Origin: a bacterium
GTDB taxonomy: Bacteria; Patescibacteriota; Patescibacteriia; CAZCGY01
DNA length: 39,865 nt
Assembly: GCA_043807225.1 (NCBI GenBank)
Contig: JAZDGG010000060.1
Coordinates: 1 to 39,865 of the forward strand
Reading direction: 5' to 3'
The translations under genes were made by a program, and so were the position numbers. Below, in pieces: positions 2,361 to 38,535 of the stretch. Position 1 is the stretch's first letter; each line of letters begins with the position of its first letter. A model generated the notes under the pieces. It saw only the letters and a list, made by a program, of their open reading frames with translations. It ran no database searches and had not been told where the DNA came from.

Positions 2361-3248
2361 TTATTTTTTTCTCCAGTAGGGGAGAAGGGGGCTGGCCAGA
2401 AAAATCGATGAGTACGTCCCGATGAGAATGCCGACGATCAGCGCGAGGACGAAATACCGGATGGTCTGTCCGCCGAAGAAGTACAGCGCGACGAGAACGA
2501 GGAGTGTTGAAAGCGACGTGTTGATCGATCGCACCAGCGTTTCGTTGACGCTCCGGTCGATGATGTCGACAAGCTGGTCATTCGGGTGCCGCCGCAGTCC
2601 TTCTCTGATGCGGTCAAAGACCACAATGGTATCATGAACTGAAAACCCAAGAACCGTGAGCAGGGCAGTGACAAACAACGCATCGATCTCGATGTGAAAG
2701 ACGTACCCGAGAAACGCGAACGCCCCAAGGGTGATCCCCACATCATGGATGAGCGCGATAAACGCGTTGATGCCGAATGCCCAGCCAGAAATCTGGCCTG
2801 CGGATTTTCGAAACGCCCAGCTGATATACAGAATAATCCCCACGAGAACGAGCACGACCGCCAGAATCGCCTTCTGCTGTAATTCCCGCCCGAGCGTCGG
2901 CCCGACTTCTGAGTAAGAAACTTCCTCGATCTTTCCGTACTTTCCTTTCAGTACGTCAGTCAGTTTTGTGTGCCGATCGGCGTTCAGCTGTTTTGTCCGG
3001 ATGATCACGTTCTTTTCGCCTGCGGATTGCACGCGTGTATCAAGGTAGCCGTTGTCCGACAGCAGTTTTTCGATATCGGCCACGGCCGGTGTCATCCGCT
3101 CGTCAAACTGAACTTGCAGCAGTGATCCGCCCGTAAAATCCGTGCCGAGGTGCAGCCCGCCGAGCAGAAGAAAAACCAGCCCGCCCGCTACAAGCAAAAA
3201 CGAGAATCCGAACCAAAGATATCGATAGCGCACTACTCTCAGCATCAT
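2361..3248 (-). CDS. secF: Protein translocase subunit SecF
   Basis: LGTDFTGG, VGPTLGRELQ, HDV, GFSVHDTIVVFDRIRE, RSINTS, GTYSSIF. Start overlaps the secD stop (ATGA). Confidence 0.97.
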   Translation of the reverse strand: MMLRVVRYRYLWFGFSFLLVAGGLVFLLLGGLHLGTDFTGGSLLQVQFDERMTPAVADIEKLLSDNGYLDTRVQSAGEKNVIIRTKQLNADRHTKLTDVLKGKYGKIEEVSYSEVGPTLGRELQQKAILAVVLVLVGIILYISWAFRKSAGQISGWAFGINAFIALIHDVGITLGAFAFLGYVFHIEIDALFVTALLTVLGFSVHDTIVVFDRIREGLRRHPNDQLVDIIDRSVNETLVRSINTSLSTLLVLVALYFFGGQTIRYFVLALIVGILIGTYSSIFLASPLLPYWRKK

Positions 3249-4960: not shown

Positions 4961-4968
4961 ACCACGCT

Positions 4969-4996
4969 ATGTTACCATATGGCGGCTTTCTTTCAA
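4969..4996 (-). promoter_or_regulatory. Putative secD promoter, TTGAAA-N16-TAACAT with extended TG; probably leaderless
   Basis: Minus strand TTGAAA gaaagccgccataTGg TAACAT agcgtggt ATG: 8 nt between the -10 and the start codon, and no Shine-Dalgarno (SD) sequence. Confidence 0.6.
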
Positions 4997-5048
4997 GGAT
5001 ACCTTTTTTTCCCCCGTTGGGATGCTCTCACGCACGATGGAAGCTGCG

Positions 5049-6485
5049 TCAAGAAGAAATGATGACCGGCATCCCCACGTCTGCCCACTCGTAGATCCAC
5101 TTTGCATTCGTGAGATCGATGTTCACGCATCCGTGACTCATCCGGTGGCCGAAGTTGTGGTGCCAAAAGGCATAGTGGAGATAGAATGACGGTGCGAATC
5201 GGAGGTTCCATTCAACGTCCTTGATGTCGTAGTTATCCGGATGATTTTCTCCATAGGACCATTCGTAATCCTTCTTCTGAACCTTCGCAAGAATCGAGAA
5301 CGTTCCGGTCGGCGTCGGGTATTTGTTGATCCCCGTTGACACCAGAAACGTCCGAACGACTTTGCCGTTCTCGTACGCATAGAGCCGCTGTTCGCTGATC
5401 CGCACTTCAACGTACTTTTGATACGCCGTACTCCCTTGGATCGTATTCCTGCCAGGCGCGGTGACAATCTTCACGTTGCCGGTCGCCTCCGTTTTTCCAG
5501 TAGCGATATTGACTCCTCCGAGAAAGGATGACGCGTAGGCGAGAAAATTCGTCCCAAGCGGTTTTCCATACGCTTCGAACGCGCGCAGCTGGGGCTTTCC
5601 TCCGCTGGCGAGTCCGACGAGGATTTCGTCACGATGGTCATTGTCCAGATCCCCTGTCGCCACAGAATATCCACCCTGGAAACTTTCCGGCCACCCTTCA
5701 AACTGCCCGATGATCGTCTGCTGCGCGTTTGCGCGATACACCTTAACGAGCGAGCGACCGAAACGGTGAATGGCCGTGATGATTTCCGATTCCTTCCCGC
5801 CATCGACATTCCCAACCGCAACCGCAACGCCCCCGCGGTCCCGATCCGCATACGGGATGATGGAACTCCCGATCTGCTTCCCGTACCTGTTAAAGACCTT
5901 GACCTGGGGCGATGCTCCGACGCCCACGTCGGCAACGATGTCGGCAAAACCATCGCCGTTCACGTCTCCGCACGCGACGTTTACCCCGCCGCGAAAAGAT
6001 TTTGCAAATGCGGCAAATCCGGGCGTGTATTTCACCTCTCCCCATTCAGAGAAAATGCGCACTTGTGACGTTCCCCCCTGGCCTGGTCCGACGAGGATTT
6101 CGTTGATGCCGTCATTATTAAAATCGCACGACGCCACTTTGACCCCACCGCGAAAGTTTTTGGGATAGCCAAAAAACTGCGAGAGGACTTCCCCACTGGA
6201 CGCAAAGACTCTCACCTGCGGTGTTCCGCCCGGCCCTGCGCCGGCAATGATCTCATCGATGCCGTCTCCGTTGACATCTCCGGTCGCAACCGTTGCCCCT
6301 CCGCGGAATCCACTCCCAAACGCCAAAAAGGATTGCTCCTGTACTGACGTCTGTGCGTTATAGATGTGGATGTCCGGCGAGCGGCTATCGTTGGTTGCCG
6401 CTTGCGCGTCTGCAGTCCACAAAAAGCATACACCTACAAGGAGTCCGCAAAAAAGAAAAGTGTCGTTTTTATGAAAAAGAGTCAC
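5049..6485 (-). CDS. Secreted FG-GAP/VCBS-repeat beta-propeller protein with a C-terminal L,D-transpeptidase (YkuD) domain
   Basis: Signal peptide ending ADAQA; six F..F.GG..VA.GD.NGDG..EII repeats; C-terminal EQRLYAYENG...VSTG...TPTGTF...LHYAFW...MSHGCVN with the catalytic His/Cys motif. Confidence 0.9.
   Translation of the reverse strand: MTLFHKNDTFLFCGLLVGVCFLWTADAQAATNDSRSPDIHIYNAQTSVQEQSFLAFGSGFRGGATVATGDVNGDGIDEIIAGAGPGGTPQVRVFASSGEVLSQFFGYPKNFRGGVKVASCDFNNDGINEILVGPGQGGTSQVRIFSEWGEVKYTPGFAAFAKSFRGGVNVACGDVNGDGFADIVADVGVGASPQVKVFNRYGKQIGSSIIPYADRDRGGVAVAVGNVDGGKESEIITAIHRFGRSLVKVYRANAQQTIIGQFEGWPESFQGGYSVATGDLDNDHRDEILVGLASGGKPQLRAFEAYGKPLGTNFLAYASSFLGGVNIATGKTEATGNVKIVTAPGRNTIQGSTAYQKYVEVRISEQRLYAYENGKVVRTFLVSTGINKYPTPTGTFSILAKVQKKDYEWSYGENHPDNYDIKDVEWNLRFAPSFYLHYAFWHHNFGHRMSHGCVNIDLTNAKWIYEWADVGMPVIISS
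5450..6332 (-). repeat. Six protein-level FG-GAP-like repeats of about 50 aa (approximate bounds)
   Basis: Repeat cores: GDVNGDGIDEII, CDFNNDGINEIL, GDVNGDGFADIV, GNVDGGKESEII, GDLDNDHRDEIL, GKTEATGNVKIV. Confidence 0.85.
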
Positions 6486-6520
6486 TCCAATTGCGTCACG
6501 ATACTCAAAAACACCGCTTC

Positions 6521-6549
6521 ACTGTATCAAATTCTCTTTCGTCTCACAA
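6521..6549 (-). promoter_or_regulatory. Possible promoter, TTGTGA-N17-TACAGT with extended TG
   Basis: Minus strand TTGTGA gacgaaagagaattTGa TACAGT, about 35 nt upstream of the GTG start at 6485. Confidence 0.35.
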
Positions 6550-6737
6550 TATGCAGAAAAGACTCTGTTCTACATCACTCTTACCTATATGCGCTTCCTA
6601 CTTCATTTACGTCTCCCACAGTGATGGATTGTCCAACAATTTCTTGAAGTAGATATCAATATCGTCGAGTGCTGCTGATTCTCCCAGCAAAAACAGTTGG
6701 AGGTATCGTTTTTATTTGTGTCCCGTTATACATTACC

Positions 6738-7094
6738 TCATCTTTGCGGATGCGTATCGTTCCCTTTACCAACTCTTGCCGCATACGCAAAATGGTAAAA
6801 ATAACGATCAAGGTCAGCAAGAGGAGTGTGATATTCCTGACCTCCCGCAGCGGCATCACACAGCAATTCCCGCGCGCGAGTGATTTCTTTCAGACGATGC
6901 TGCCAGCGCGGATCTTGAATCGTCAGATCGAGAAGCTCGAGTGCACGGTTGACCGCGGAATGGAATCTCTCTGGATTGTCCGCTTGCCGTTTCAACGCAC
7001 GGGTAACCTCACTCCCGATATTCCCTAATTGTTCGGTGAGCGTGAGCATTTGCCACAGACCGGAAGCGAGGGTGGCGTGCTGATACGACATCAT
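6738..7094 (-). CDS. Small alpha-helical conserved hypothetical protein, partner of the DUF5674 gene
   Basis: 118 aa; EQLGNIGSEVTRA...RALELLDLT...RLKEITRARE. Start overlaps the upstream stop (ATGA). Confidence 0.8.
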   Translation of the reverse strand: MMSYQHATLASGLWQMLTLTEQLGNIGSEVTRALKRQADNPERFHSAVNRALELLDLTIQDPRWQHRLKEITRARELLCDAAAGGQEYHTPLADLDRYFYHFAYAARVGKGNDTHPQR

Positions 7095-7441
7095 ACTTTT
7101 TTTGTGAGCAGTTGAACGATTGCTTTAATCCGCTCCTGAACAGCAGCATCCTCCACGTCGCGTGAGCGATTTCCCTGAGAGGGACGTATATTGATCATGG
7201 AATCGTACTCAATCCATTGATCGTCGGAAAGGTCAGGATACAGATTAATTCCCCAAAGATCTTTCTGCGCGGAACCGCGCTCGATCAGTAATGCTTCTTC
7301 GTCAGCGTGCAATTCTCCGCCAACCGCCATAATCTTCTTTTCGACGTCAACCACCGCCTTGACCATATCACCGAAGCGCTCTTTGGCAAGTTCGCGTAGT
7401 TGTTCTCGAGTAATCTGCTTTTCGATGAGGTGCATGGTCAT
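7091..7441 (-). CDS. DUF5674 family protein
   Basis: FGDMVKAVVDVEKKIMAVGGELHADEE..L...GS.QKDLWGINLYP...IEYDSMINIRPSQGNRSR; family recognised from motifs. Alternative start at 7435. Confidence 0.8.
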   Translation of the reverse strand: MTMHLIEKQITREQLRELAKERFGDMVKAVVDVEKKIMAVGGELHADEEALLIERGSAQKDLWGINLYPDLSDDQWIEYDSMINIRPSQGNRSRDVEDAAVQERIKAIVQLLTKKV

Positions 7442-17638: not shown

Positions 17639-17992
17639 TTACACTTGTTGAAGCATAAGATAGAGCGCCCAAAAGCAAATTGCTTGAAGAAATATACTGG
17701 TCAGGAGAAGAAAGTACGGAATGACTTTTTCTCTTTTCTGCAGGATGAGAGAGAGAACACTGTTGACGCATAACGCCAGAAGTCCTGCCGCAGGAATCAG
17801 CAAAAGATACCACCACGGACCAACTAGGTCAATGCCAAAGTAGATGTTATAATGGAGCGGAATATTTTGCGTTTGCGGCTCTACTCGCGAAGAGAGAAAG
17901 AGCCAGAGAACGCTATTTTCAAGCAATGCAAAGAGGGATCCAAAAAAAAGAAAACGGTCTTTGAAGAAATCGCGAAGATGGCTCAGCACCAT
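17639..17992 (-). CDS. Small conserved membrane protein (about 3 TM; PLHYNIYFGID motif)
   Basis: Hydrophobic 117-aa ORF from the ATG at 17992, ending 4 bp before mraY. The longer ORF-track start overlaps the divergent gene. Confidence 0.75.
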   Translation of the reverse strand: MVLSHLRDFFKDRFLFFGSLFALLENSVLWLFLSSRVEPQTQNIPLHYNIYFGIDLVGPWWYLLLIPAAGLLALCVNSVLSLILQKREKVIPYFLLLTSIFLQAICFWALYLMLQQV

Positions 17993-18013
17993 TCGTTTAT
18001 GGGTTCTCTGTTC

Positions 18014-19819
18014 ATGAAAAAGTTCTCGGTGGTCTTTATTCTTCCTGCGGTTGCGATTCTCGTTGGCATGTTTGTCGTCCAATTGACAAGCGCGAGAACT
18101 GAATCACAGACTGTCGATGAAGGCGTCCATCTCACCGCAGGGTATTCCTATTGGAAGACGGGAGATTTTCGATTAAACCCCGAACATCCTCCCATTGTCA
18201 AACTCCTCGCTAGTGTACCACTCCTCTTTCTCCCGATCCACCTGCCACTCTCGGATCCCTCATGGAACAACCGAGACGAATGGGCGTTCGCGCGCCACTT
18301 TCTCTACGAGAATACCGTTCACGCCGACTGGATTCTCCTTCTCGGGAGAATCCCCATGATGCTCCTCGGCGTTGTTCTTGCCCTCTGCGTCGGTTTGTGG
18401 TCCCGAAAACTCTGGGGGACGTTGGCCGGCCTTCTCTCCCTCACGCTCTGCGCGTTTGACCCTACCATCCTCGCACACTCTCGGTACGTCACAACGGACG
18501 TCGGCATTGCGCTGTTCTTCTTTCTGACAATCTACTTCTTCGGCCGTTACCTCGAACAGCCGGGCATTCGCCGCTGGTGGCTGGTTGCGCTCTTTTTCGT
18601 TCTCGCACAGCTGTCAAAATTTTCTGCGGTGCTGCTCTGGGGCATCCTCCCGATCATTTGGTTCCTTCGTCATTGGGTCGGCGATCATCAGCATGCGTTC
18701 GGCCTGCGTCGCGCACTGTTGTTCTTTCTCTCCTTGCTGCTCGCAACCAATCTCTCCGCGTTCGTCGTGTACGGATTCGAATTCAAACTCCCATTCGCAG
18801 ATCCCGGGCTTGCGGGGGTCTATCAAAGCGGACAGCCGTGGCAACCAGACGTTCTTCGACAGCAGCCGCCGCTTGCACAGAGCATCCTCAACATCACCAA
18901 GCCCAGGACGATCTCCGGCGCACTCATCCGTTTTGGTTTTGCGCACATCCCACTTCCCGCCTACTCATACTTTCGCGGACTTGCGAGCGTTACCTGGCAC
19001 GAATACTGGGGCCACATGGCGTACCTCCTCGGAAATTTTCGTACGACAGGATGGTGGTATTACTTCCCCGTCGCTTTTCTGGTCAAAACACCTTTTGCGA
19101 CGATCATCCTCCTCGGGCTTACCCTCATCTATCTCGCGCGTCTCTTTTTTGACCGCCTTATCTCCTACCGCCAACGCGGGAGGGATTCTGTACTACAGAA
19201 GGCGCTGTTCAGTTATCGGTCGGCGGATTTTTCGTACACGCTGCTCATCATCCCTCCGCTCGTGTATTTCCTCATCAGCTGCACAAACAAAATTGATCTT
19301 GGTATCCGCCACCTCCTCCCCATCTATCCGTTCCTGTTCGTTCTCATCGGCAGTCTCACCACCGTCAAATTCTCCAGACTCCAACCGGCATGGCACGCGC
19401 TCTTGTATTCCTTTGTGGCTCTCTTTTTCATCGGTTCTGCGATAACCTATCCGTACTATCTCGCATACTTTTCTGAGCTTGTTGGAGGCCCAAACCAGGG
19501 AGCGCGGTATCTCACCGACTCAAACCTTGACTGGGGGCAAGAGCTAAAAGCACTCGGTCGGTACATGGATGACCAGCACATTCCATTCGTCTACATCGTC
19601 TACTTCGGCCAGGCGCCACTCAACGCGTATTTGAAAGGTTATCGTTTTCTGCCGACGATCAGCTCCCCAGATGCGATTGCACAACTCGACGGTTGGGTGG
19701 CAATCAGCGCCACCGCGCTCTTCGACGCATCCGGCAGTTATGACTGGCTCCGCCGGCTCCATCCGACGACAAAAATTGGGTATGCGATCTTTCTCTACGA
19801 TCTGCGCAAACAGCAGTAG
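18014..19819 (+). CDS. GT-C fold glycosyltransferase (ArnT/PMT-like, polyprenyl-phosphate-sugar dependent)
   Basis: TVDEGVH (DE motif), NPEHPP, AHSRYVTTD, LSKFS, WWYYFP..FLVKTP, GIRHLLP, DSNLDWGQ; many TM helices. Start at ATG 18014 or 17999. Confidence 0.88.
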   Translation: MKKFSVVFILPAVAILVGMFVVQLTSARTESQTVDEGVHLTAGYSYWKTGDFRLNPEHPPIVKLLASVPLLFLPIHLPLSDPSWNNRDEWAFARHFLYENTVHADWILLLGRIPMMLLGVVLALCVGLWSRKLWGTLAGLLSLTLCAFDPTILAHSRYVTTDVGIALFFFLTIYFFGRYLEQPGIRRWWLVALFFVLAQLSKFSAVLLWGILPIIWFLRHWVGDHQHAFGLRRALLFFLSLLLATNLSAFVVYGFEFKLPFADPGLAGVYQSGQPWQPDVLRQQPPLAQSILNITKPRTISGALIRFGFAHIPLPAYSYFRGLASVTWHEYWGHMAYLLGNFRTTGWWYYFPVAFLVKTPFATIILLGLTLIYLARLFFDRLISYRQRGRDSVLQKALFSYRSADFSYTLLIIPPLVYFLISCTNKIDLGIRHLLPIYPFLFVLIGSLTTVKFSRLQPAWHALLYSFVALFFIGSAITYPYYLAYFSELVGGPNQGARYLTDSNLDWGQELKALGRYMDDQHIPFVYIVYFGQAPLNAYLKGYRFLPTISSPDAIAQLDGWVAISATALFDASGSYDWLRRLHPTTKIGYAIFLYDLRKQQ

Positions 19820-28755: not shown

Positions 28756-30069
28756 ATGCTGACGCTGCGCGTTCGTCGGATTCTCTACATGTCGTTTTCA
28801 GCCGTTTTTGTCCTGATCGCTGCTACGCTGCTCCTCTATGGATCTGGATTCCGTTTCGATTGGTCACGGAAAGCGTTCTATCAGCCAAGTTTCATCGTTT
28901 TCTCAGTTGTACCGCAACCGGATCGCTGTTTCATCGATAATCAGCCGCTGGCGTGTATGGGGACATCTTTTCGCGTTGTTGCGGCCCCGGGGAATCACGC
29001 ACTCCGTCTGGAAAGGTCGGGGTATTTCTCTTGGGAAGGGAGCGTCGCTGCGCGTTCCGGGATCGTATCATCCCTTGGCGACATCCGTCTTTTCCGTCAG
29101 CAATCGAGCCAAGTGATCGCCGACCAGGTAATGCGCGTGACGGCTTCGCCGAATGCAAAATACGCAGTGGTGCTCCGAAAGACGCAACCGGTTCTTCAGC
29201 TGATTGATTTGGAGATGTCGGTCGTCACGCCACTCCCATTTGAGGGCCACGGGGCGGTTGAAGAAATGGCATGGAGCCCATCCAGTACCGAGATCGCCGT
29301 GCAGAGTGTTGATAATGGACAGCAGACGTTGACGTTCCTGCCGGTAACCGGCGCTGCCAGTGTCGTCCCCATTGTTGCCCCCGCGCTGGAGCGTTTTCAA
29401 TGGAGCACGCGTCGTCCACACCACCTTTTCTACCTGCAGGATGGCGTTCTGAGCGATCTTGATCTCGATGCAAGTGTCTCGACCGTCGTTGCAACCAATG
29501 TAGCCGCGTGGACAGAATCCGGGAACGCACTCACCCTGATCTCTCCAGAAGGAAACGTCGAAACGCTCGACGCACAGAATCCTTTCACGTCCTCGCGGGC
29601 TCACCTCGGGACGCTTCTGCATTTTCGTCACCCGCAATTCGTCACGGGATCGTCGTCGTTCCTGGCCATCCATGACCCAGAGAGCAAGCAACTCGCTCTC
29701 TTTCGACTTTCCGACCGCGTGCCGCAACCGCTTCTCTATCACAATATTACGCACTGCTCGTGGTCCGAGGACATGAGCACGCTTCTCCTTGGCAGCGAGT
29801 ATGAGTTGTTTACGTTCAACGTCCTCCGGTCAGAACCGCGGCTGCTGCGCCGTTCAGGCGAGCCGCTCGGTGCCGTTCTCTGGTTTCCGAACTATCCGTA
29901 TCTTCTCGTTCAGCAAAACCGTTCGCTGATCGTCCTGGATGCGCTTGCTCGGAGCACTCCACTCACCATCGGTTTTCTCCAAGGAGTACCGCAGGAGCTT
30001 TTTCTCAACCGGTCGAACAATACCTTTTTTTCGCTCTCGGACGAAAAGGTTGTTGCGCAGTCGCTGTAG
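28756..30069 (+). CDS. Membrane-anchored PEGA-like plus beta-propeller hypothetical protein
   Basis: N-terminal TM, YGSGFRFDW, PG.H.LRLERSGYFSW (PEGA-like), repeated SPNA/WSPS/WSED propeller turns. Confidence 0.7.
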   Translation: MLTLRVRRILYMSFSAVFVLIAATLLLYGSGFRFDWSRKAFYQPSFIVFSVVPQPDRCFIDNQPLACMGTSFRVVAAPGNHALRLERSGYFSWEGSVAARSGIVSSLGDIRLFRQQSSQVIADQVMRVTASPNAKYAVVLRKTQPVLQLIDLEMSVVTPLPFEGHGAVEEMAWSPSSTEIAVQSVDNGQQTLTFLPVTGAASVVPIVAPALERFQWSTRRPHHLFYLQDGVLSDLDLDASVSTVVATNVAAWTESGNALTLISPEGNVETLDAQNPFTSSRAHLGTLLHFRHPQFVTGSSSFLAIHDPESKQLALFRLSDRVPQPLLYHNITHCSWSEDMSTLLLGSEYELFTFNVLRSEPRLLRRSGEPLGAVLWFPNYPYLLVQQNRSLIVLDALARSTPLTIGFLQGVPQELFLNRSNNTFFSLSDEKVVAQSL

Positions 30070-30169
30070 ACATGTTTCTCGTATCGATATACTCCCGAAG
30101 TGCGGTCTCCCAGCCACGCAGAGGGGGGTCTTTGGTATTGACGAGGGTGGAGTATGTTGGACGCATTGC

Positions 30170-30894
30170 CGCGCGGATGTTCATCGCGCGTCAAGTATCC
30201 AAGTTACCGAAGCTGCGAAGGTAATCGAGAACACCTATCGGGATCTGAACATCGCGCTGACCAATGAACTTGCACAGATCTTTGCGCTCATGGGGATCCC
30301 CGTCGCCGACGTTCTGGCTGCTGCGGCAACAAAGTGGAACTTTGCGCGGTACGAGCCCGGGCTTGCCGGCGGGCATTGTATTGGTGTCGATCAATACTAC
30401 CCGACGTTTGCAGCGCAGCGTCTCGGCCATAACCCCAAAGTCATCCTTGCCGGGCGGAGGATGAATGACGGTATGGCTGAATACGTCGTCCAGAGAGTCA
30501 TCAGGATGATCATGTGTCATTGCCGGGCGGAGGATCGAACCGTCCTTGTTCTTGGGATGACGTTCAAACCGGACGTACCCGACATTCGAAACTCGAAAGT
30601 CAAGGAAATCATCCGTCGGCTGCTGGGGTATGGACTCATAGTCAACGCGTTTGACCCGATGCTCGGCGCGGACGCACCAGATTGGGGTCAATACACTACC
30701 TACAGGAGTCTGGATGAGATCCCGGCGCACAGTATTGTCCTCCTTCTCGTCCCTCACACCAGGCCTTCCTCAAAAACCGGCTTGTCCTTCTTCGTCTTTG
30801 CACACCAAGTGGCAAAAGCATTTTCTTTGATCTCAAGGGTGTCGCATCGGAACTTGCGCAGACCAGTCCGGGTTTGATCTACGAAACCCTCTAG
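30170..30894 (+). pseudogene. UDP-GlcNAc/GalNAc (TviB/WbpO-like) nucleotide-sugar dehydrogenase remnant
   Basis: EAAKVIENTYRDLNIALTNEL, TKWNF..PGLAGGHCIGVD, LGMTFKPDVPDIRNSK are present. The N-terminal NAD-binding domain is missing. A 2-nt frameshift near 30758 separates the C-terminus (HQAF...FFDLKG...YETL*). Confidence 0.85.
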
Positions 30895-30983
30895 CTGCAA
30901 CAAGCCGCGCCGATATCGCGGATTGATCGAGGGGAAAAACCACGCAACCTTCGAGGAGCGTGGGAAGCCCGCATCGTAAAACA

Positions 30984-31010
30984 GGGGGAGTACCTACCGC
31001 TCCCTTTTTT
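30984..31010. terminator. Possible intrinsic terminator, perhaps bidirectional
   Basis: AAAAC-AGGGGGAG-tacctaccg-CTCCC-TTTTTT. Confidence 0.45.
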
Positions 31011-31011
31011 C

Positions 31012-31040
31012 TTTACAGAACTGCCTTTTTTTGATAATCT
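31012..31040 (+). promoter_or_regulatory. Putative promoter of the UbiA operon, TTTACA-N17-TAATCT with extended TG
   Basis: TTTACA at 31012-31017; TGaTAATCT at 31032-31040. Confidence 0.45.
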
Positions 31041-31094
31041 ACAGCTCATTGTCTTCTTTATTCGGAAGTAATTCTTGTTAACCGCATCGCTTTG

Positions 31095-31973
31095 ATGTTT
31101 TCTGCGATCGCCGAATCTTTGCGAGTAAAACAGTGGACGAAGAACCTCATCGTTTTCGCGGCGTTAATTTTTTCACTGAATTTTTTTGACACTGCGCTCC
31201 TTCTCCGATCCTTCTTTGCCTTTGCACTCTTTTGTGCGGCGGCGAGTGGAACGTACTTCTTGAACGACGTCCTCGATAGAGAGCAAGATCGTCAGCACCC
31301 GACAAAATCTCTCCGCCCGATCGCCTCTGGGAGACTATCCGTGCAAAAAGCGCTGTTGGTCGGCTTTCTCCTTCTTCTGCTGAGCGTTGCGGGAAGTTTT
31401 CTTCTCACCGCTTGGCTTGGCTGGACGATCACTGGCTATCTCGTTCTGCAGTTTTTCTACTCCAAATATCTCAAGCGTGTCGTTATCCTCGACATCATGG
31501 TGATTGCCTTTGGGTTTGTTCTCCGCGCAGTCGCGGGAGCGGTCGCGATTGACGTGGCGATCTCCCACTGGCTTCTCGTCACCACCCTCCTCCTCGCCCT
31601 CTTTCTTGGATTCGGGAAGCGTCGTCATGAGCTCATGCTGCTCCAGGAAAATGCGAATACCCATCGGCCGGTGCTCACCGACTACAGCCCATACTTTCTC
31701 GACCAGATGATCGGCATCGTGACGGCGTCGACCGTCATCGTCTACATGCTCTACACCACGTCGTCAGAAGCAACCGCACATTTTGGCGGGCCAAAGCTCC
31801 TCTACACGATGCCGTTCGTTCTCTATGGCATTTTTCGCTACCTCTATCTCATCCATCAGAAAGACCATGGCGGCGACCCATCGAAAACGCTGTTGACCGA
31901 CCCTCCGCTGATTATCGACATCATTCTTTGGGCAGCGATCGTCATCATCCTGCTCTATTACTCCCACATATGA
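31095..31973 (+). CDS. UbiA-family polyprenyl-phosphate 5-phosphoribosyltransferase (DPPR synthase / Rv3806c-like)
   Basis: RVKQWTKNL, YFLNDVLD..DRQHPTK..RPIASG, YSKYLKR, GFVLRAVAG, FGKRRHEL, YGIFRY, GGDP; this motif set is typical of the DPPR-synthase subfamily. Confidence 0.88.
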   Translation: MFSAIAESLRVKQWTKNLIVFAALIFSLNFFDTALLLRSFFAFALFCAAASGTYFLNDVLDREQDRQHPTKSLRPIASGRLSVQKALLVGFLLLLLSVAGSFLLTAWLGWTITGYLVLQFFYSKYLKRVVILDIMVIAFGFVLRAVAGAVAIDVAISHWLLVTTLLLALFLGFGKRRHELMLLQENANTHRPVLTDYSPYFLDQMIGIVTASTVIVYMLYTTSSEATAHFGGPKLLYTMPFVLYGIFRYLYLIHQKDHGGDPSKTLLTDPPLIIDIILWAAIVIILLYYSHI

Positions 31974-33049
31974 AATCAAAAGTCGCAGTCCTGTACACAA
32001 AACCGGAGACTGTCTTGGCGGATTACGCGCGGCTCATGGATCTTGCTGGTGCACGGGATGCGCTTCCGCTGGGTAAGCCCGTCATCCTCAAGGATAACAT
32101 CTCGTGGCACTTCCCGATGCCGGGAGCAAACACCACGCCGTGGCAGCTGGAGGGCGTCGTGCAGTATCTGCAGCAGAGCGGATACACAAACACGGTCTGC
32201 GTCCAGAATAAAACCGTGGTCACGAACGCGTTCAAGGGTGAGGATTTGAACAAATACGTCCCCATCTTCAAGAAATACCACATCCCAGTTCTCTATAACT
32301 TCAAAGATCAGGATATGCGATGGATTGAATACGCGCCGAAAGCGGAGATGCTCGTGCTGAAAAAGATTTTTCCCGAAGGTATTCGCATCCCTGATTACTT
32401 CGTCGGAAAAAGTATCATCCATTTGCCGACGGTGAAGTGTCACATCTACACGACAACAACCGGGGCAATGAAAAATGCATTTGGTGGCCTTTTGAACACA
32501 AAACGGCATTATACACACTCGTGGATTCACGAAACGCTCGTTGATCTTCTTGCTATCCAAAAGGAAATCCACAGCGGCATTTTTGCCGTCATAGACGGAA
32601 CAACCGCCGGCAACGGCCCCGGCCCGCGGACAATGTATCCGGAAATAAAAAACGTCATCCTCGCCTCCGCCGATCAAGTTGCCATCGATGCGGTTGCCGC
32701 AAAACTTATGGGATTTGATCCTCTCTCGATCAAGTATATCCGACTCGCCAACGAACGCGGGTTGGGCAACGGCGACCCGCGGAACATTGAGATCGTCGGG
32801 GACGATATTGCCGGTGTCAACTGGCATTTCTCCGTCGGCGACAACTTTGCGAGCCGCGTCGGCGACATGCTGTGGTTCAGCCCGCTGAAAAAGATCCAGA
32901 ACTTCTTTTTCCGCACACCACTTGTGAATCTCTTTATTTTTGGTTCCGAGGCGTACCATGATTACTTTCGTTGGCCGGCGAAGGACCGTCGCATCTTTCA
33001 ACGCTGGCTGCGTGAAACCGAGTGGGGAAAGTTATTTGTACAGTATTAA
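31970..33049 (+). CDS. DUF362 domain protein, without a ferredoxin domain
   Basis: ILKDNISWH, TTPWQLEGV, HLPTVKCH..TTTTGAMKNAFG, DGT.AGNGPGP, DQVAIDAVAAKLMGFDP. ATG at 31970 overlaps the UbiA stop. Confidence 0.85.
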   Translation: MKSKVAVLYTKPETVLADYARLMDLAGARDALPLGKPVILKDNISWHFPMPGANTTPWQLEGVVQYLQQSGYTNTVCVQNKTVVTNAFKGEDLNKYVPIFKKYHIPVLYNFKDQDMRWIEYAPKAEMLVLKKIFPEGIRIPDYFVGKSIIHLPTVKCHIYTTTTGAMKNAFGGLLNTKRHYTHSWIHETLVDLLAIQKEIHSGIFAVIDGTTAGNGPGPRTMYPEIKNVILASADQVAIDAVAAKLMGFDPLSIKYIRLANERGLGNGDPRNIEIVGDDIAGVNWHFSVGDNFASRVGDMLWFSPLKKIQNFFFRTPLVNLFIFGSEAYHDYFRWPAKDRRIFQRWLRETEWGKLFVQY

Positions 33050-33054
33050 ACGGA

Positions 33055-34035
33055 ATGGCTGACGGTCGCGCTGTCCAGAAGCGATTTCTTCTCTCTGTCG
33101 TTCTTGGTGTTGGGGTATTTTTTGCGCTCATCGTTTTTGGAAACGCAAAAGAAACAGGCATCGCCTTGCACCACATTGCCTGGCGGTACCTGCCGTCCGT
33201 TTTTGCGCTGGCATTTCTCAATTATTGTATTCGCTTTATCCGTTGGCATTATTATCTCCGAATTTCAAAAATCTGTTTGCCCTTCGCCCAGAGTCTCACA
33301 GTCTTTTTTTGTGGTCTCAGCATGTCAATTACCCCTGGAAAAATCGGCGAAGTGGTCAAGGCATATTTTGTCAAAACGCTCAATGGGACCCCCATGAGCA
33401 GTACCCTTGGTATCGTATTTGTGGAACGATTCACTGATCTGTTTGCCGTTGTGTTGCTCGCGAGCATTGGAGCACTGAGTTTTCATTATGGCCAAATAGT
33501 CGTATTTATTGGCGCTGCCATTGTTTTTTTCATACTTGCCATTATCATAAACCGACGGCTTTCCGAGAGACTTATCCGCCTGCTTGCTCGTGTTCGCCGG
33601 CTTTCACAATTTTCCGAAAAGCTCTTTACTGTGTATGAGCATTCTCATCGTCTCCTCTCAGCGCGACCGCTCACGATTGGTCTGATGCTGGGCATCCTTG
33701 CGTGGTTCAGTGAATGCTTCGCGTTCTTTCTTGTCCTCCAGAGTCTCCAGATTCCGCTTTCTCTGACGATGGCAATATTTATCTACGCATTTTCAACACT
33801 TTTTGGCGCAATGACGATGCTCCCGGGAGGACTTGCGACAACCGAGGGTAGTATGGCCGGCCTTCTGCTTCTTCGAGGAATCCCCAAAGATGCCGCTGCA
33901 GCTGCGACGATTGTTATCCGCATTGCAACGCTGTGGTTCGCTGTGCTCTTTGGGATTCTCTGGATGCTCCCCTATCGAAAGATGACGGTAAAGGCAAAAA
34001 TGAATAGCGAAAAACAAGCGCATGGAACGTTGTGA
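33055..34035 (+). CDS. Lysylphosphatidylglycerol-synthase TM / UPF0104 flippase-like membrane protein
   Basis: IRFIRW, TPGKIGEVVK, VERFTD, LPGGLATTEG, IRIATLW; about 8 TM. Confidence 0.85.
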   Translation: MADGRAVQKRFLLSVVLGVGVFFALIVFGNAKETGIALHHIAWRYLPSVFALAFLNYCIRFIRWHYYLRISKICLPFAQSLTVFFCGLSMSITPGKIGEVVKAYFVKTLNGTPMSSTLGIVFVERFTDLFAVVLLASIGALSFHYGQIVVFIGAAIVFFILAIIINRRLSERLIRLLARVRRLSQFSEKLFTVYEHSHRLLSARPLTIGLMLGILAWFSECFAFFLVLQSLQIPLSLTMAIFIYAFSTLFGAMTMLPGGLATTEGSMAGLLLLRGIPKDAAAAATIVIRIATLWFAVLFGILWMLPYRKMTVKAKMNSEKQAHGTL

Positions 34036-34669
34036 ACTCCACCTTCATACTGAATTTTCTCGCGACTGCGCGATGAGTCTGCAGACGGTAATTGCGGCGT
34101 GCGAGCGACAGGGCATTACAACGCTTTTTGTGACCGACCATAACGAAATTGAAGGGGCGCGGCAGCTTCAAAAGATCGCGCCATTTCGCGTTATCCCGTC
34201 CGAGGAAATCACGACCTCCGAGGGAGAGCTTATTGGTTACTTTCTCAAAGATCGCATCGCGCCATCCCAGACACCCGAGGCAACCATTGTGGAAATCCGA
34301 CGTCAGGGCGGGATCGTGTCCGTGCCGCATCCATTTGATCGTCTTCGCGGCTCTGCAATTCGTCGTGAGACCCTTGAACGAATCATCTCTCAAATCGACC
34401 TTCTCGAGATATTTAATTCTCGTAACATCTTCCCAAGGGACGACCAAAGAGCCGAGCAATACGCGCGATCGACTGGGAAGCTCTCGACTGTCGGCTCAGA
34501 TGCGCACTCTCGTCAGGAGATTGGCCGTTCGTATCTTGAGCTGGGAGATTTTTCGACACCGGCTGAATTCCTTGAAGCACTCAAAACCGCGAAACGATAC
34601 CCCCGACGAAGTTCTCCGTTTGTGCATGTCGTTACGCTTTTCAAAAAACACGTCCCCTGGTTCCGTTAG
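34022..34669 (+). CDS. PHP-family metal-dependent phosphoesterase
   Basis: LHLHT..S.D, VTDHN, EEI, PHPFD, EIFNSR, GSDAH. Confidence 0.9.
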   Translation: MERCELHLHTEFSRDCAMSLQTVIAACERQGITTLFVTDHNEIEGARQLQKIAPFRVIPSEEITTSEGELIGYFLKDRIAPSQTPEATIVEIRRQGGIVSVPHPFDRLRGSAIRRETLERIISQIDLLEIFNSRNIFPRDDQRAEQYARSTGKLSTVGSDAHSRQEIGRSYLELGDFSTPAEFLEALKTAKRYPRRSSPFVHVVTLFKKHVPWFR

Positions 34670-34703
34670 CCCCCAACCCCTCCATGAGAACCACCACAAG
34701 GAC

Positions 34704-35117
34704 TCAGTCCGACTCGTGGATCTCTTCGGTAATTGCCGTAAGAGCAATCAGTGCAACGATAACCGATGAGGCCGCCCCAAGGAGAATTGCCATCGTAATA
34801 CCCTGGCCTCGCATTTGTAGATACACAAGAAATCCGCACACTATCGCGATCCCGGCAATCACCACCGTGATCGTACGATGATTCTGGGAACCTTTTTGCT
34901 TGGGGGAATCCTTTTCCTGATACGCCGCGAGAAAAGAAAACCCGAAAATTCCCGACCCGATGGCAAGAAAGAGGAGAACGTCGGTATTCAGTGAATGAGA
35001 AACAAACCCAGGACTTACTGATTCAAGAAAAGAAAAAAAGCCGAAGGCAACGAGCGAAACATAAAATAACTCCGTAACAACAAACCGTATAATGATGGCA
35101 GCTTGATTCTTTGTCAT
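34704..35117 (-). CDS. Small multi-TM hypothetical protein
   Basis: 137 aa with about 4 hydrophobic segments; ATGA overlap with the upstream gene. Confidence 0.75.
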   Translation of the reverse strand: MTKNQAAIIIRFVVTELFYVSLVAFGFFSFLESVSPGFVSHSLNTDVLLFLAIGSGIFGFSFLAAYQEKDSPKQKGSQNHRTITVVIAGIAIVCGFLVYLQMRGQGITMAILLGAASSVIVALIALTAITEEIHESD

Positions 35118-36892
35118 TGGGTAGAACGGCGAAAGGAAGATAAAAGCTTCTGTTTCAATTTATCATAAATGGATCCGACGGTTGTTGGTTTTTTATAAAA
35201 ATCAATCTGTATTTCCTGAAGAAGAATCCTTCGATGATTCTCCGAGAGTCTTGGAAGGTTCACTAAAAATTGTACCGTATTGTTTTCATCAAAGGGAAGT
35301 TTTGAGTTTTGAAATGACGTCGTCGCTTTCAGCCATACCCCATCCTGAGCCGCCTGCGGATAATCCGCGATAATATAGTGATATCGATCGAGTGGCGTTG
35401 TTGGGGTGATTGTTTCTATCTTCGGTGTGGGGGTAAAGAGTTGATCCTTTGAAAATGCAAAATATCCGTCCGTGGTGAGCTGAACATCGTTCTTTGGAGA
35501 AACGACTGTGGTAATCCCGGAAAGTCCGTCGATAACTTTTTCCTCCTGGACGTCATCGAGCGTCATCGTGGTTTTCCCGACTTCCACTGTTTGTAATCCG
35601 TTTTCGTGCGCTGTTCGTGCTCTGAGATAACTGCCATCAACAAAAAAACTTGTCGGCTGATTTTTCTGCAAACCGAGGATTTCTTTATATTCAGGATTAT
35701 CCGTAAGATACAGACTTTTATAAAACACGATCAGATGCTGTTGCGTCACAATCTTCTTAATGAACACATCATCCTCGGTGTGAATCTTGAGATAATAGGC
35801 TCCTTCGGGCAACTCCGATTTTCTTACATTGATTTCCCGTTCCTCCGATGGTCTCCCCGTCGCCTTCTCTTCGCCGTATCCATCAATATGCTCAGCAAAT
35901 ATCTGCTTCGTCGTATCCCAGACCTCGATAGAAACTGCGTCCTTCCCAGCATGACGGTTGATATCCTGTATCGTAAAGGTAAAGGACATTGGTTCGTTTT
36001 CGCCAATATACGTCACGATTTCATGACTTCCTCGAAGTGGATATTCAAGCGTTGTTGTTTCGCTCGACGCCTGATATTCGGGTAAGCGATATAGTTTCCC
36101 AAGATCATACTCGTATTGAAGAACTGTCTTCGGATCTGGTAAACTTTTCAAGAAATCGCCAACGCTAGCGAAGGGAACCGACACATTCGAAAGATACTCC
36201 TGGGGCAACCGAATATTCTTTATGGAATCCTGAAACTCCTGGTTCGATCGTTTTCGTCGAGTATTCGCCTCTTGACTCGAAATACTTTTCTTTTTTTCTT
36301 GCTTCTGGATCTCTTTCATCCGCGCGTCATGTTCCTGTTGCAGGCGAGTATGTTCTTTTTCGTAAAACGCGTCGTAAAGTTCTTTGAGATGATCATCTTT
36401 CTGCCATACGGTAAGATTGCTATCCATTTTGCGCACCCAATACTCAGGAAGATTTTCAAGAAACGACTCATTCATGGCCACGTTTTTCAGATAGGGACCG
36501 TCCGCCTGGAGTGACCCGATTTTCATCACTGGTTGATTATCGGGATTCAGATATCGAATCGAGACATCCGCACGAGAAAAAGGACGTGGGAGAGTCACCG
36601 AAAAATATACCGGATCAACGGTAAGGTATTGAAACTGAGTTCTCGTCTGTCCATCAGCAAGTTGGCCGAGTAGTGGATACGGCTCCTTTGACGCAACATT
36701 GGAGAAGTACGGCGACGCGCTCCCAGGATGGTACCGCACCGTGAGGTGACCAAACGGGAGAAAGTATTGATTCAGGAGCCACACGAGCAACAGAACTGGC
36801 ATTGCCCAAAGCACGATGCGAATGCCGACCTTCGCTCCCTTCGAAATCGCCTCAGAGGAGCCCTTTAGAGTATGGGGAGATGTGATGTTCAT
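35114..36892 (-). CDS. Membrane-anchored extracytoplasmic hypothetical protein
   Basis: 592-aa ORF; N-terminal TM, beta-rich body, and a charged coiled-coil insert (EKEHTRLQQEHDARMKEIQKQEKK). Confidence 0.85.
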   Translation of the reverse strand: MNITSPHTLKGSSEAISKGAKVGIRIVLWAMPVLLLVWLLNQYFLPFGHLTVRYHPGSASPYFSNVASKEPYPLLGQLADGQTRTQFQYLTVDPVYFSVTLPRPFSRADVSIRYLNPDNQPVMKIGSLQADGPYLKNVAMNESFLENLPEYWVRKMDSNLTVWQKDDHLKELYDAFYEKEHTRLQQEHDARMKEIQKQEKKKSISSQEANTRRKRSNQEFQDSIKNIRLPQEYLSNVSVPFASVGDFLKSLPDPKTVLQYEYDLGKLYRLPEYQASSETTTLEYPLRGSHEIVTYIGENEPMSFTFTIQDINRHAGKDAVSIEVWDTTKQIFAEHIDGYGEEKATGRPSEEREINVRKSELPEGAYYLKIHTEDDVFIKKIVTQQHLIVFYKSLYLTDNPEYKEILGLQKNQPTSFFVDGSYLRARTAHENGLQTVEVGKTTMTLDDVQEEKVIDGLSGITTVVSPKNDVQLTTDGYFAFSKDQLFTPTPKIETITPTTPLDRYHYIIADYPQAAQDGVWLKATTSFQNSKLPFDENNTVQFLVNLPRLSENHRRILLQEIQIDFYKKPTTVGSIYDKLKQKLLSSFRRSTQ

Positions 36893-38535
36893 AACTGGAC
36901 CCTATAGAGCACGCCGGATTCATACGCCGCAAAACGCGAAAGAGACGCACTGGCTCGCAAAAATATCATGCGATTCCATGATACCACATCGCTCGAATCA
37001 CCCTGTTCCTCAAAATAGTACACTGGGATATCCAGAAAGGAGTTCTTGAGAGCAGAATAGGATGTCGAGGGATATTCAGGAAGCGCAACAAGAACATTGC
37101 GCTTTGGGAAAAAAAGTTTATCCGCATACCCGCTCACAATCAAGGCATTCGGTTCAACGTGCTTGAGCAGTGTAGACTGCGCAACGACGCTTGTTTCAAG
37201 ATTCTGCTTGATACGAATGAGGCCATGAAGTGGGTCTTTGTAGACTAATTGCATCGTGGTCACCACAACGACCACTGAGAGGAATATCGTGAGTGCGCGC
37301 TTCAGCAGCAACCCGGGGAGCAACTGGAGTATTTGGATGATTCCGTACGAAACAAAGGGGACGCCGAAGAGAAGAACTGGTAACCAGTAACGAAGATACG
37401 ACGACGCAAGAATAACTTTTTCTGCTTTGGCGTATTCATGCAATTCCCAAGACCCGTAATAGAGGATCAGGTAGGCCGTTACTACACCGGAGAGCACCCC
37501 GAAAAAAATCGTACGCCGCCTTACTCTCCGCTTCCATGCGCCAGAGATTGCCACCCCGAGCCCAGCGCACCCCAAGATAAAGAAAAATGGCAAGAGCGTC
37601 GCCGAATACCGAATAAAATTCCAAAATGCTTGAGCGAGATGAAATCCGAATGGAAAAAAGGCTCGCGAAAACGCGGTCAGAGTGTTTGTCGCAACCTCGG
37701 CGCCATCCCCCGACGACGTGGCCGCGGGAATATATGCAGACGAGAAAGGCCCGCCATATATTATGTTATTACTGATCATGAGCGCAGAAATCGCAAGAGC
37801 GCCCACAAGACAAAAACTGACGAGACTCCGGACTGAGTACTGATGACGAAAGGCAAGAAAGACTGCAACAAGAATCGCAATGACCCAAGGGGCTTCTGAG
37901 GTACGGACCCACAGTGCAAGTGAGAGAAAAAGTGACGCAAGCACTGAAATCCATACTGAGTTCCTTCTTATCATTTGGAGCATCAAATAAAATCCGAACA
38001 CAAGTAGCGATACAAACAGGCTATTGTGATACATGGGTCGGCTTGCGTAATACCAAAAAGCAGGGAGCAGTGGAACGAGTATCGCTGAAAAATATGCACC
38101 CCTCTCCCCAATGATCTCGCGCATGAGAAAATAATACACAACAATCGAAAGAGCCGCGGCAAGGGGCGTCACGCTGATCATCCCGACAGTACCAAACGCT
38201 CGTCCAACAATCCCGATGAGAATTGGAAAACCAATAAAACTCCCTGGGACCATATTCCCATCCACAACCGTGGTGCTCCTCGGATGAATCAGCGGAGCGC
38301 TCTCCTGACCAACCGTGGTGGGGGCACGAAGCGATTGACCGTTCGCGACTCGCTGTGCGAAAAAGAAGTTCGCTGTTTCGTCAGGGGAATTGAACAGCGT
38401 CGGCATGCGTAGCGACGACCAAAGATACACGCCAAGCAAGAGTGCGCTCAGGCAGACAATCACTGCAACGTGCCGACTTGACTGCCTTCTCAAGCGTTGT
38501 ACTATCCATTTCCTCATATATACCCACCTCTTCAT
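36889..38535 (-). CDS. Polytopic membrane protein, probable GT-C glycosyltransferase
   Basis: FNSPDETAN (DE motif after TM1), HPRS, PGSF.G.P, VRTSE, SYLRYWLP; more than 10 TM. Alternative start at 38517. Confidence 0.7.
   Translation of the reverse strand: MKRWVYMRKWIVQRLRRQSSRHVAVIVCLSALLLGVYLWSSLRMPTLFNSPDETANFFFAQRVANGQSLRAPTTVGQESAPLIHPRSTTVVDGNMVPGSFIGFPILIGIVGRAFGTVGMISVTPLAAALSIVVYYFLMREIIGERGAYFSAILVPLLPAFWYYASRPMYHNSLFVSLLVFGFYLMLQMIRRNSVWISVLASLFLSLALWVRTSEAPWVIAILVAVFLAFRHQYSVRSLVSFCLVGALAISALMISNNIIYGGPFSSAYIPAATSSGDGAEVATNTLTAFSRAFFPFGFHLAQAFWNFIRYSATLLPFFFILGCAGLGVAISGAWKRRVRRRTIFFGVLSGVVTAYLILYYGSWELHEYAKAEKVILASSYLRYWLPVLLFGVPFVSYGIIQILQLLPGLLLKRALTIFLSVVVVVTTMQLVYKDPLHGLIRIKQNLETSVVAQSTLLKHVEPNALIVSGYADKLFFPKRNVLVALPEYPSTSYSALKNSFLDIPVYYFEEQGDSSDVVSWNRMIFLRASASLSRFAAYESGVLYRVQL

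Follow-up and report, generated by a model that had tools for sequence, protein, structure and literature searches.

The operon and its genes

The DNA considered in this report is the 39,865-nucleotide contig JAZDGG010000060.1 of assembly GCA_043807225.1, which we refer to as the "window" and whose positions are given along the forward strand of the whole stretch. Four plus-strand genes at 31095-34669 encode, in this order, a UbiA-family transferase, a DUF362 protein, a flippase-like protein of the UPF0104 family and a phosphoesterase of the PHP family, and they are discussed here as a candidate system for supplying a lipid-linked pentofuranose to surface glycosylation, with DUF362 as the enzyme that might remodel the sugar. 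Lipid-linked pentofuranose donors supply cell-envelope glycans, and in mycobacteria DprE1, which acts at the epimerase step, is targeted by drugs. The open reading frames (ORFs) and junctions of the operon were read directly from the sequence, and all four proteins match Pfam or NCBIfam families. The features are as follows.

30983-31007, plus strand: terminator-like hairpin that closes the upstream gene (9-pair stem with 4 G-C pairs, T-rich tail)
31095-31973, plus strand: UbiA-family polyprenyl-phosphate phosphoribosyltransferase as predicted by NF008977, 292 amino acids, ~7 hydrophobic helices
31970-33049, plus strand: DUF362 protein, 359 amino acids, soluble with no predicted membrane helix, candidate sugar-remodelling enzyme (PF04015, 92 bits)
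33055-34035, plus strand: UPF0104/LPG_synthase_TM flippase-like protein, 326 amino acids, ~9 hydrophobic segments, candidate translocase (PF03706, TIGR00374)
34022-34669, plus strand: PHP-family metal-dependent phosphoesterase, 215 amino acids, soluble, candidate 5-phosphate phosphatase (PHP and PHP_C domains)

The tight coupling of the four genes that was claimed in a preliminary description of this DNA is evident at each junction: the ATG of DUF362 at 31970 lies inside an ATGA that overlaps the TGA of the UbiA gene, a 5-bp gap separates the end of DUF362 (33049) from the start of the UPF0104 gene (33055), and the PHP gene starts (34022) 14 bp inside the end of the UPF0104 gene (34035). At the hairpin (30983-31007), the operon is predicted to begin as a separate unit of transcription. 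The putative promoter of the same description fared less well, as a scan for sigma-70-like consensus sites across 30700-35300 returned 4 sites where 3.8 are expected by chance, none of them upstream of 31095. By eye only, a TTTACA (31012-31017) and a GATAAT (31033-31038) separated by 15 nucleotides can be picked out 3' of the hairpin. A search for public sequencing runs that cover the operon listed none.

The identical gene order and coupling was encountered in one other genome (G001, locus L001), which is the single instance of the full four-gene order among the 80 other DUF362 loci described below. We regard G001 as a relative of the source genome because its SecA is 73% identical to the source SecA and lies ~20 kb from the operon on the same contig, as it does in the window. 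The source assembly comprises 90 contigs with a total of 1.035 Mb (estimated completeness 96.3%), and genes for Sec, peptidoglycan and type IV pili are also present in the window; the host fits a tiny-genome bacterium of the Candidate Phyla Radiation (CPR) type.

A UbiA protein of the PRPP-using branch

The UbiA protein scores 305.8 bits against the NCBIfam model for decaprenyl-phosphate phosphoribosyltransferase (NF008977, cut-off 234), or 306.6 bits in the search of the genome, and aligns with the solved Rv3806c (PDB 8j8j) at E 2e-34. In Rv3806c, phosphoribosyl pyrophosphate (PRPP) and Mg are bound by R22, K28, Y70, N73, D77, K87, R90, Q135, Y138, K143 and Y157, and the phosphoribose sites are not conserved among other UbiA enzymes, according to PMC10994848. 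Ten of these 11 residues are kept in the window protein when it is aligned to 8j8j (R10, K16, Y54, N57, D61, K71, R74, Q119, Y122 and K127), and the eleventh, Y157 of Rv3806c, corresponds to F141. Phenylalanine is found at that position in some mycobacteria as well. Nine of the contact residues are invariant across 28 relatives of this UbiA, and Pfam and NCBIfam scans detected no HAD domain in the protein. Because of the NF008977 score, the Rv3806c alignment and the retained contact residues, the predicted placement of this protein in the DPPR/PPPRS synthase branch, with use of PRPP, is well supported; the earlier designation of a DPPR-type enzyme can stand at the level of the protein sequence.

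Conservation of DUF362 and its association with UbiA

A scan for DUF362, with one genome per species, yielded at least 542 relatives from 592 candidate stretches. The best 80 of these, which are the 80 loci referred to throughout, are 70-80% identical to the window protein and come from the Chloroflexota, Ignavibacteriota, Bacteroidota, Acidobacteriota, Eisenbacteria, Binatia, Myxococcota and other groups. Among Pfam families the window protein matches PF04015 alone, even when matches with E up to 5 are admitted. DUF362 is more conserved than SecA: the copies of the window and G001 are 80% identical as compared with 73% for the SecA pair, and the source SecA is 43-67% identical to those of two of the other phyla that carry DUF362. 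The gene is also under strong selection here, with dN (nonsynonymous divergence) of 0.15 and dS (synonymous divergence) of 2.2 between the window and L001.

In 31 of the 80 loci, DUF362 is directly preceded by a UbiA gene of the same orientation, and in one more the UbiA gene is found 4.6 kb off on the opposite strand. The start codon was resolved for 21 of the 31 adjacent pairs, of which 11 share the ATGA overlap and 10 are separated by a gap of 2-9 nucleotides. At the level of whole genomes, UbiA of the NF008977 type was detected in 46 of 50 DUF362 genomes (43 above the cut-off) versus 1 of 14 control genomes, in 32 of 34 DUF362 carriers versus 70 of 117 others in a sample of 151 genomes from the phylum of genome G007, and in all 6 carriers versus 45 of 245 others in a sample of 251 genomes (0.4 to 2.1 Mb) from the source phylum; these and all later co-occurrence counts treat related genomes as independent. 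The 151-genome sample includes two unpublished genomes, G338 (with DUF362, larC and UbiA) and G444 (with a DprE1-like gene and UbiA), and dropping both shifts each count for that sample by one. Since only 6 of the 51 UbiA-positive genomes of the source phylum have DUF362, the latter is an accessory part, which is almost never present without this type of UbiA, whereas the UbiA is often present without DUF362. Directly downstream of DUF362, a gene for an EamA-type transporter is found in 23 of the 80 loci, and an LPG_synthase_TM gene occurs near DUF362 in 5 of them.

Thirteen residues (H151, K156, H158, K168, R179, H180, H183, H187, D192, D209, R220, D235 and D240) are invariant in a set of ten DUF362 rows that took in five distant carriers from the source phylum. 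Inteins interrupt seven of 12 long relatives (P0006, P0007, P0012, P0020, P0022, P0089 and P0090), and in five of these the intein includes a LAGLIDADG endonuclease. As aligned for P0022, the insertion directly follows K156, so that a single residue (157) separates it from H158. Such placement of an intein is typical of critical sites. Two predicted proteins, P0049 and P0021, join the C-terminal part of DUF362 to LPG_synthase_TM in the gene order of the window; they may be true fusions or artefacts of gene calling, and have been excluded from the evidence. A search of the ESM Atlas with DUF362 gave no model, and its feature matches were all below 0.8.

In a quick tree, the DUF362 proteins of the window and L001 nest within the tight clade that brings together many phyla, and five other source-phylum carriers are placed at a distance from them. 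Horizontal transfer of the gene into this lineage was considered but is not shown, because a tree that unites all seven small-genome copies is not rejected by an approximately unbiased (AU) test (p 0.548, with 31 of the 86 rows used), and a common origin of these copies is thus compatible with the data.

The slot of DprE1 and DprE2

The preliminary description had assigned DUF362 to the step that DprE1 and DprE2 carry out in mycobacteria, and had predicted that DUF362 and dprE1 would exclude each other. The source genome has no match to the DprE1 model NF053785, MurB is its sole match in a search with FAD_binding_4, so that no DprE1 was detected by this route either, and a tblastn search of it with the DprE1-like and DprE2-like proteins of locus L067 (see below) found no match. 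DprE1-like genes, called by NF053785 at E up to 1e-50, occur in 39 of the 151 genomes of the G007 phylum, and 36 of these are UbiA-positive. The 102 UbiA-positive genomes of this sample divide into 31 with DUF362 only (28 of them with larC), 35 with a DprE1-like gene only (16 with larC), 1 with both (G428) and 35 with neither. DUF362 and DprE1-like genes thus co-occur with an odds ratio of 0.03 (naive p 1e-6), which is largely the exclusivity that had been predicted.

Kinship with LarA and the nickel-pincer cofactor

A relation between DUF362 and the racemase/epimerase family LarA had been suggested in the preliminary description, correctly in that PMC11770544 places DUF362 and DUF2088 (the LarA N-domain) together in Pfam clan CL0471 and uses DUF362 as an outgroup. 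That paper describes the characterised members of the LarA family as being, without exception, racemases or epimerases, and it assigns cofactor-holding roles to Lys184 and His200 and catalytic roles to His108 and His174. The best local hhalign alignment of the two families, which is non-significant, sets H158 of DUF362 on H174 of LarA and K168 on K184, and a forced extension of it sets H180 on H200.

The gene for LarC, which is linked to the nickel-pincer nucleotide of LarA, is enriched among the carriers of DUF362. We found larC in 44 of the 50 DUF362 genomes, 12 of which have no protein with a Lar_N domain, and in 30 of 34 carriers versus 45 of 117 non-carriers of the 151-genome sample. In six genomes its identity was confirmed with NCBIfam, and there it stands solitary among housekeeping genes. 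On this evidence, DUF362 probably uses the nickel-pincer nucleotide in most of its carriers. Two further observations on these genomes may be recorded separately. The lone larC of Candidatus Chlorohelix (G044, locus L137, 3435-6322) adjoins genes for a DedA-family protein and for an UptA-type undecaprenyl-phosphate transporter, and an aldo-keto-reductase gene recurs ~4-6 kb downstream of DUF362 in the Chloroflexota loci L009, L020, L025 and L046.

The flippase-like protein and the PHP enzyme

The UPF0104 protein matches PF03706 over its full length (158.4 bits, profile positions 1-302) and TIGR00374 with 116 bits. UPF0104 (COG0392) is described as a predicted glycosylation flippase encoded beside PMT/STT3-like enzymes in Makarova et al. 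2015 (PMC5898192), and in the source phylum UPF0104 genes lie within 3.3 kb of UbiA in 4 of 19 loci, as do PMT_2 genes (likewise 4 of 19). With this predicted family role, and with its recurrence beside UbiA and DUF362, the earlier proposal of the UPF0104 protein as the flippase candidate is strengthened.

The PHP protein exceeds the cut-offs for PF02811 (33.1 bits) and PF13263 (PHP_C, 46.4 bits), and reaches 66.5 bits against the model for the CehA/McbA metallohydrolases, below the cut-off of 80. A role as a cytoplasmic phosphoesterase is plausible because the protein has the PHP and PHP_C domains and no predicted membrane helix, and by its position in the operon it is probably the 5-phosphate phosphatase. 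Elsewhere PHP is rarely in this position: it adjoins DUF362 in 1 of the 80 loci, and the phosphatases encoded beside UbiA in the 19 source-phylum loci are PHP in 1, HAD in 2 and PAP2 in 1. Because of this variety, the phosphatase step seems to be filled by whatever enzyme is at hand. Searches of PDB sequences with the PHP and flippase-like proteins returned nothing useful.

In five genomes of the source phylum (loci L113-L116 and L121), UbiA belongs to a common core together with Bac_transf, GT4 and, except in L114, DUF4012 genes, which is followed in four of them (not L115) by further GT4 and UPF0104 genes; DUF362 is present in none of the five. This arrangement appears to be a second setting for this type of UbiA, one that does without DUF362.

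The convergent GT-C unit

Two GT-C glycosyltransferases had been reported in the window, and both are indeed of the PMT_2 type. One belongs to a minus-strand unit that converges on the operon, and the other adjoins a cell-wall gene cluster.

36889-38535, minus strand: GT-C glycosyltransferase of the PMT_2 type, 548 amino acids, ~11 helices (PF13231, 33.2 bits, cut-off 26.1)
35114-36892, minus strand: 592 amino acids, no match in Pfam; single predicted membrane helix at the N-terminus, with a large domain on the outside
34704-35117, minus strand: 137 amino acids, no family match, four membrane helices predicted; final gene of the unit that converges on the operon
17852-19819, plus strand: second PMT_2-type GT-C, 655 amino acids (PF13231, 36.3 bits; PMT, 23.1 bits; weak Agl23-family match)

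The enzyme encoded at 36889-38535 is a likely user of the lipid-linked donor, and the one at 17852-19819 a possible further user. A search of PDB sequences found no relative of the former. The gene for the 592-amino-acid protein overlaps the adjacent GT-C gene by 4 bp, and a homolog with 35% identity occupies the same place in L001. This ORF was also considered as a GT-C enzyme in its own right and was rejected on account of its single predicted helix and large soluble domain. In the Atlas, the protein belongs to a family of hypotheticals in which the commonest named phylum is Candidatus Uhriibacteriota, and one nearby cluster is half archaeal.

The proposed pathway and its alternatives

We propose that the operon supplies the cytoplasmic and membrane-crossing steps of a system for glycosylation with lipid-linked pentofuranose, in which DUF362 is the enzyme that remodels the ribose, and we assign a probability of roughly 0.5 to this reading as a whole. 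It builds on the family assignments and gene distributions reported above, from which we infer each of the chemical steps. To judge from its family and binding residues, the UbiA protein would transfer 5-phosphoribose from PRPP to polyprenyl phosphate and so generate polyprenyl-phospho-ribose-5-phosphate. A phosphatase, probably the PHP enzyme by virtue of its place in the operon, would then take off the 5-phosphate. The soluble DUF362 protein may remodel the lipid-linked ribose in the cytoplasm, most likely by inverting one hydroxyl by way of a transient keto intermediate; by analogy with LarA, a hydride would be taken from the carbinol carbon and put back on its other face. In this manner DUF362 alone would do the job of DprE1 plus DprE2, as the gene distributions and the distant kinship with LarA suggest. 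The UPF0104 protein, if it acts as its family is predicted to, would flip the donor outward, and the neighbouring PMT_2-type GT-C with its 592-amino-acid partner might attach the sugar to an acceptor at the surface.

A more specific version of this proposal states that the DUF362 clade is a single-protein, LarA-like, hydride-shuttling polyprenyl-phospho-ribose epimerase that replaces DprE1/DprE2 in many phyla, and that its CPR-type members work with a host-derived cofactor or with none. This version is tentative, and we would expect it to fail rather than to hold. Its appeal lies in what would follow from it. A large and conserved DUF362 clade, with at least 542 genomic relatives, would gain a function, a lipid-linked sugar would join the substrates of the LarA clan and so widen nickel-pincer chemistry beyond 2-hydroxy acids, part of the "orphan" larC genes (those of the 12 of 50 carriers that have larC without a Lar_N protein) would be explained, and scavenging of the cofactor by ultra-small bacteria would become a possibility. 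New in the present analysis are the exclusivity with DprE1, the nesting of DUF362 within the carriers of UbiA and the missing cofactor genes of this lineage; in the literature, no connection of polyprenyl-linked pentoses with DUF362 or with the nickel-pincer cofactor was found.

A number of observations weigh against the proposal, in addition to the treatment of related genomes as independent. Several concern LarA. Searches of PDB sequences did not find LarA, either with DUF362 as a single query or with a profile of 35 rows, the Pfam search gave no match of DUF362 to Lar_N (PF09861) or LarA_C, and the profile comparison with the LarA family that had been suggested earlier gave hhalign probabilities of 0.2 (12 rows) and 0.4 (26 rows), neither of them significant. 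The kinship thus stands as a matter of shared clan membership, as stated in PMC11770544, and falls below significance in our tests of sequence. As for the cofactor, tblastn with four LarC queries placed larC within 6 kb of DUF362 in none of the 80 loci, and the enrichment of larC could be explained by other users of the nickel-pincer nucleotide, of which the aldo-keto-reductase NphT is an example described in PMC13524815.

The situation in the source lineage itself is more of a puzzle. The source genome gave no match for larC (PF01969), for larB of the AIRC type (PF00731) or for Lar_N/LarA, its best score in the larE search (TIGR00268) was 25 bits against a cut-off of 150, and the lar cofactor genes tested were likewise not found in G001 or the other tested source-phylum carriers of DUF362. 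Only 1 of the 251 source-phylum genomes has larC, and that one is without DUF362. DUF362 in this lineage would either receive its cofactor from outside or need none, and yet it is kept under strong selection. These absences, together with the frequency of UbiA without DUF362 in the source phylum (45 of 245 genomes), could be taken to mean that DUF362 is here an inactive, cofactor-less leftover and that the operon is a plain ribofuranose system made up of UbiA, PHP, flippase and GT-C. A leftover would hardly be expected to be intact and translationally coupled, to be 80% identical to its counterpart in G001 where SecA is 73% identical, to show a dN of 0.15 against a dS of 2.2, or to keep the conserved His, Lys and Asp residues, all of which are retained by five further source-phylum carriers as well, and we consider this reading improbable.

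Other observations concern the relation to DprE1. Thirty-five of the 102 UbiA-positive genomes manage with neither accessory (14 of these with larC). Moreover, 6 of the 50 DUF362 genomes match the DprE1-like protein of L067 at E up to 1e-20, and true DprE1-DprE2 pairs are present in 4 of the 50 (G044, G027, G024 and G020). In locus L067 of Candidatus Chlorohelix, the gene order at 2697-7116 is flippase-like, DprE1-like, DprE2-like and DUF362, and this is the only locus seen in which both candidate epimerase devices are adjacent. The assignment of DUF362 to the DprE1/DprE2 slot is supported by the near-exclusivity and by the source genome, and not by the four carriers that have both. Because the pairs co-occur with DUF362, the two devices can evidently work side by side, which argues against simple redundancy; where the pair is present, DUF362 may invert another position or serve another glycan.

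Such genomes also fit an alternative in which the lipid-linked ribose module is as proposed and DUF362 carries out a step other than epimerization on the lipid-linked sugar or its carrier, for example by oxidizing the sugar to a lasting keto form, by rearranging it, or by serving the UbiA as a required soluble partner. The link of DUF362 to UbiA is strong, yet none of the observations bears on the chemistry, the source phylum lacks the cofactor genes searched for, and H108 and R75 of LarA have no conserved counterpart in DUF362 in the forced, non-significant alignment. The near-exclusivity with DprE1-like genes (both in 1 of 102) is, on the other hand, what a functional stand-in for the epimerase would predict, and the characterised LarA-family members are, according to PMC11770544, all racemases or epimerases. 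We regard the alternative as less likely than the proposal itself.

The last point against the proposal concerns PHP. With a threshold of E up to 1e-15, PHP-like genes were called in 32 of the 251 source-phylum genomes, and 4 of the 32 are UbiA-positive where 6.5 would be expected by chance. The idea of PHP as a general and dedicated partner of UbiA was rejected on these numbers, and the earlier claim that PHP fills the phosphatase step is weakened by the lack of a genome-level link to this type of UbiA in the source phylum. One might go further and consider the neighbourhood as a chance or mosaic assembly in which the product of UbiA is some unrelated prenylated compound and other pathways are served by DUF362, UPF0104 and PHP, in keeping with the 28 of 32 PHP-like genes that occur without this UbiA and with the recurrence of the full gene order in only 1 of 80 other loci. 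That view is very improbable in our opinion: the PRPP-contact residues are kept, UbiA and DUF362 are paired across phyla, UPF0104 lies beside UbiA in 4 of 19 source-phylum loci, and the GT-C genes are adjacent.

Other genes of the window

Just 5' of the operon, a plus-strand gene at 29939-30877 encodes the central and C-terminal domains only of a nucleotide-sugar dehydrogenase (TviB-like, model positions 192-360 of 425), and none of the upstream frames holds an NAD-binding N-domain for it. A 437-amino-acid ORF on the plus strand (28756-30069) overlaps this gene and has no family match. The SecD protein encoded on the minus strand at 3245-4960 contains a PPIC-type (parvulin) peptidyl-prolyl isomerase domain at residues ~150-240, inserted between the SecD_1st and P1 head domains.

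Comparison with known systems

The mycobacterial pathway for decaprenyl-phospho-arabinose comprises Rv3806c, Rv3807c, DprE1/DprE2, Rv3789 and the GT-C enzymes of the Emb and Aft types. The operon shares with it the family of the first enzyme, along with 10 of the 11 PRPP-contact residues, and it too would feed GT-C enzymes from a lipid-linked donor. It differs in having neither a PAP2 phosphatase nor a GtrA-type protein, and DprE1/DprE2, which are part of the mycobacterial pathway, were not found in the source genome.

A closer parallel to the predicted layout is provided by the three-component system of Citrobacter youngae O1/O2 (ORF15, ORF14 and ORF12, with the auxiliary epimerase ORF13) that is described in Kelly et al. 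2024 (PMC11127046). In such systems, a PRPP-using synthase of the UbiA type acts together with a phosphatase that removes the 5-phosphate, a flippase and a GT-C enzyme on the outside, and optionally with a cytoplasmic epimerase that determines which pentose is made; this is the set of roles proposed here. The parts differ. The phosphatase of the Kelly systems is a HAD domain fused to PPPRS, whereas here a separate PHP gene accompanies a UbiA without HAD; their flippase is of the MATE type, whereas the one predicted here is of the UPF0104/MprF type (PF03706/TIGR00374); their GT-C belongs to GT136, and the adjacent GT-C of the window is assigned to the PMT_2 type by its PF13231 match; and the place of their SDR (short-chain dehydrogenase/reductase) epimerase, or of DprE1/E2, would be taken by DUF362. 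The host here is a CPR-type bacterium with a tiny genome.

With the LarA superfamily (PDB 5HUQ, 9EIA and 6D6Z), DUF362 has in common the clan CL0471, as assigned in PMC11770544, an invariant His-x9-Lys...His that is colinear with H174, K184 and H200 in the non-significant alignment, and the enrichment of larC among its carriers. It is shorter (359 amino acids), is without Lar_N (PF09861) or LarA_C, and would act on a lipid-linked sugar, whereas the substrates of LarA are 2-hydroxy acids. A sugar-remodelling role for DUF362 on a lipid-linked pentose was not found in the literature, including that on LarA and its cofactor since 2024.

The UPF0104 protein resembles its archaeal and bacterial relatives (COG0392, MprF flippase-domain) in its PF03706 domain and in adjoining a PMT/STT3-like GT-C, as in the archaeal cases covered by PMC5898192. 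Unlike the cases given there, the present one is wired to a PRPP-dependent UbiA and to DUF362, with flipping being a predicted activity. Taken as a whole, the logic of the operon is that of the three-component pentofuranose systems and the mycobacterial arabinan pathway, put together from different parts and with DUF362 in the epimerase slot.

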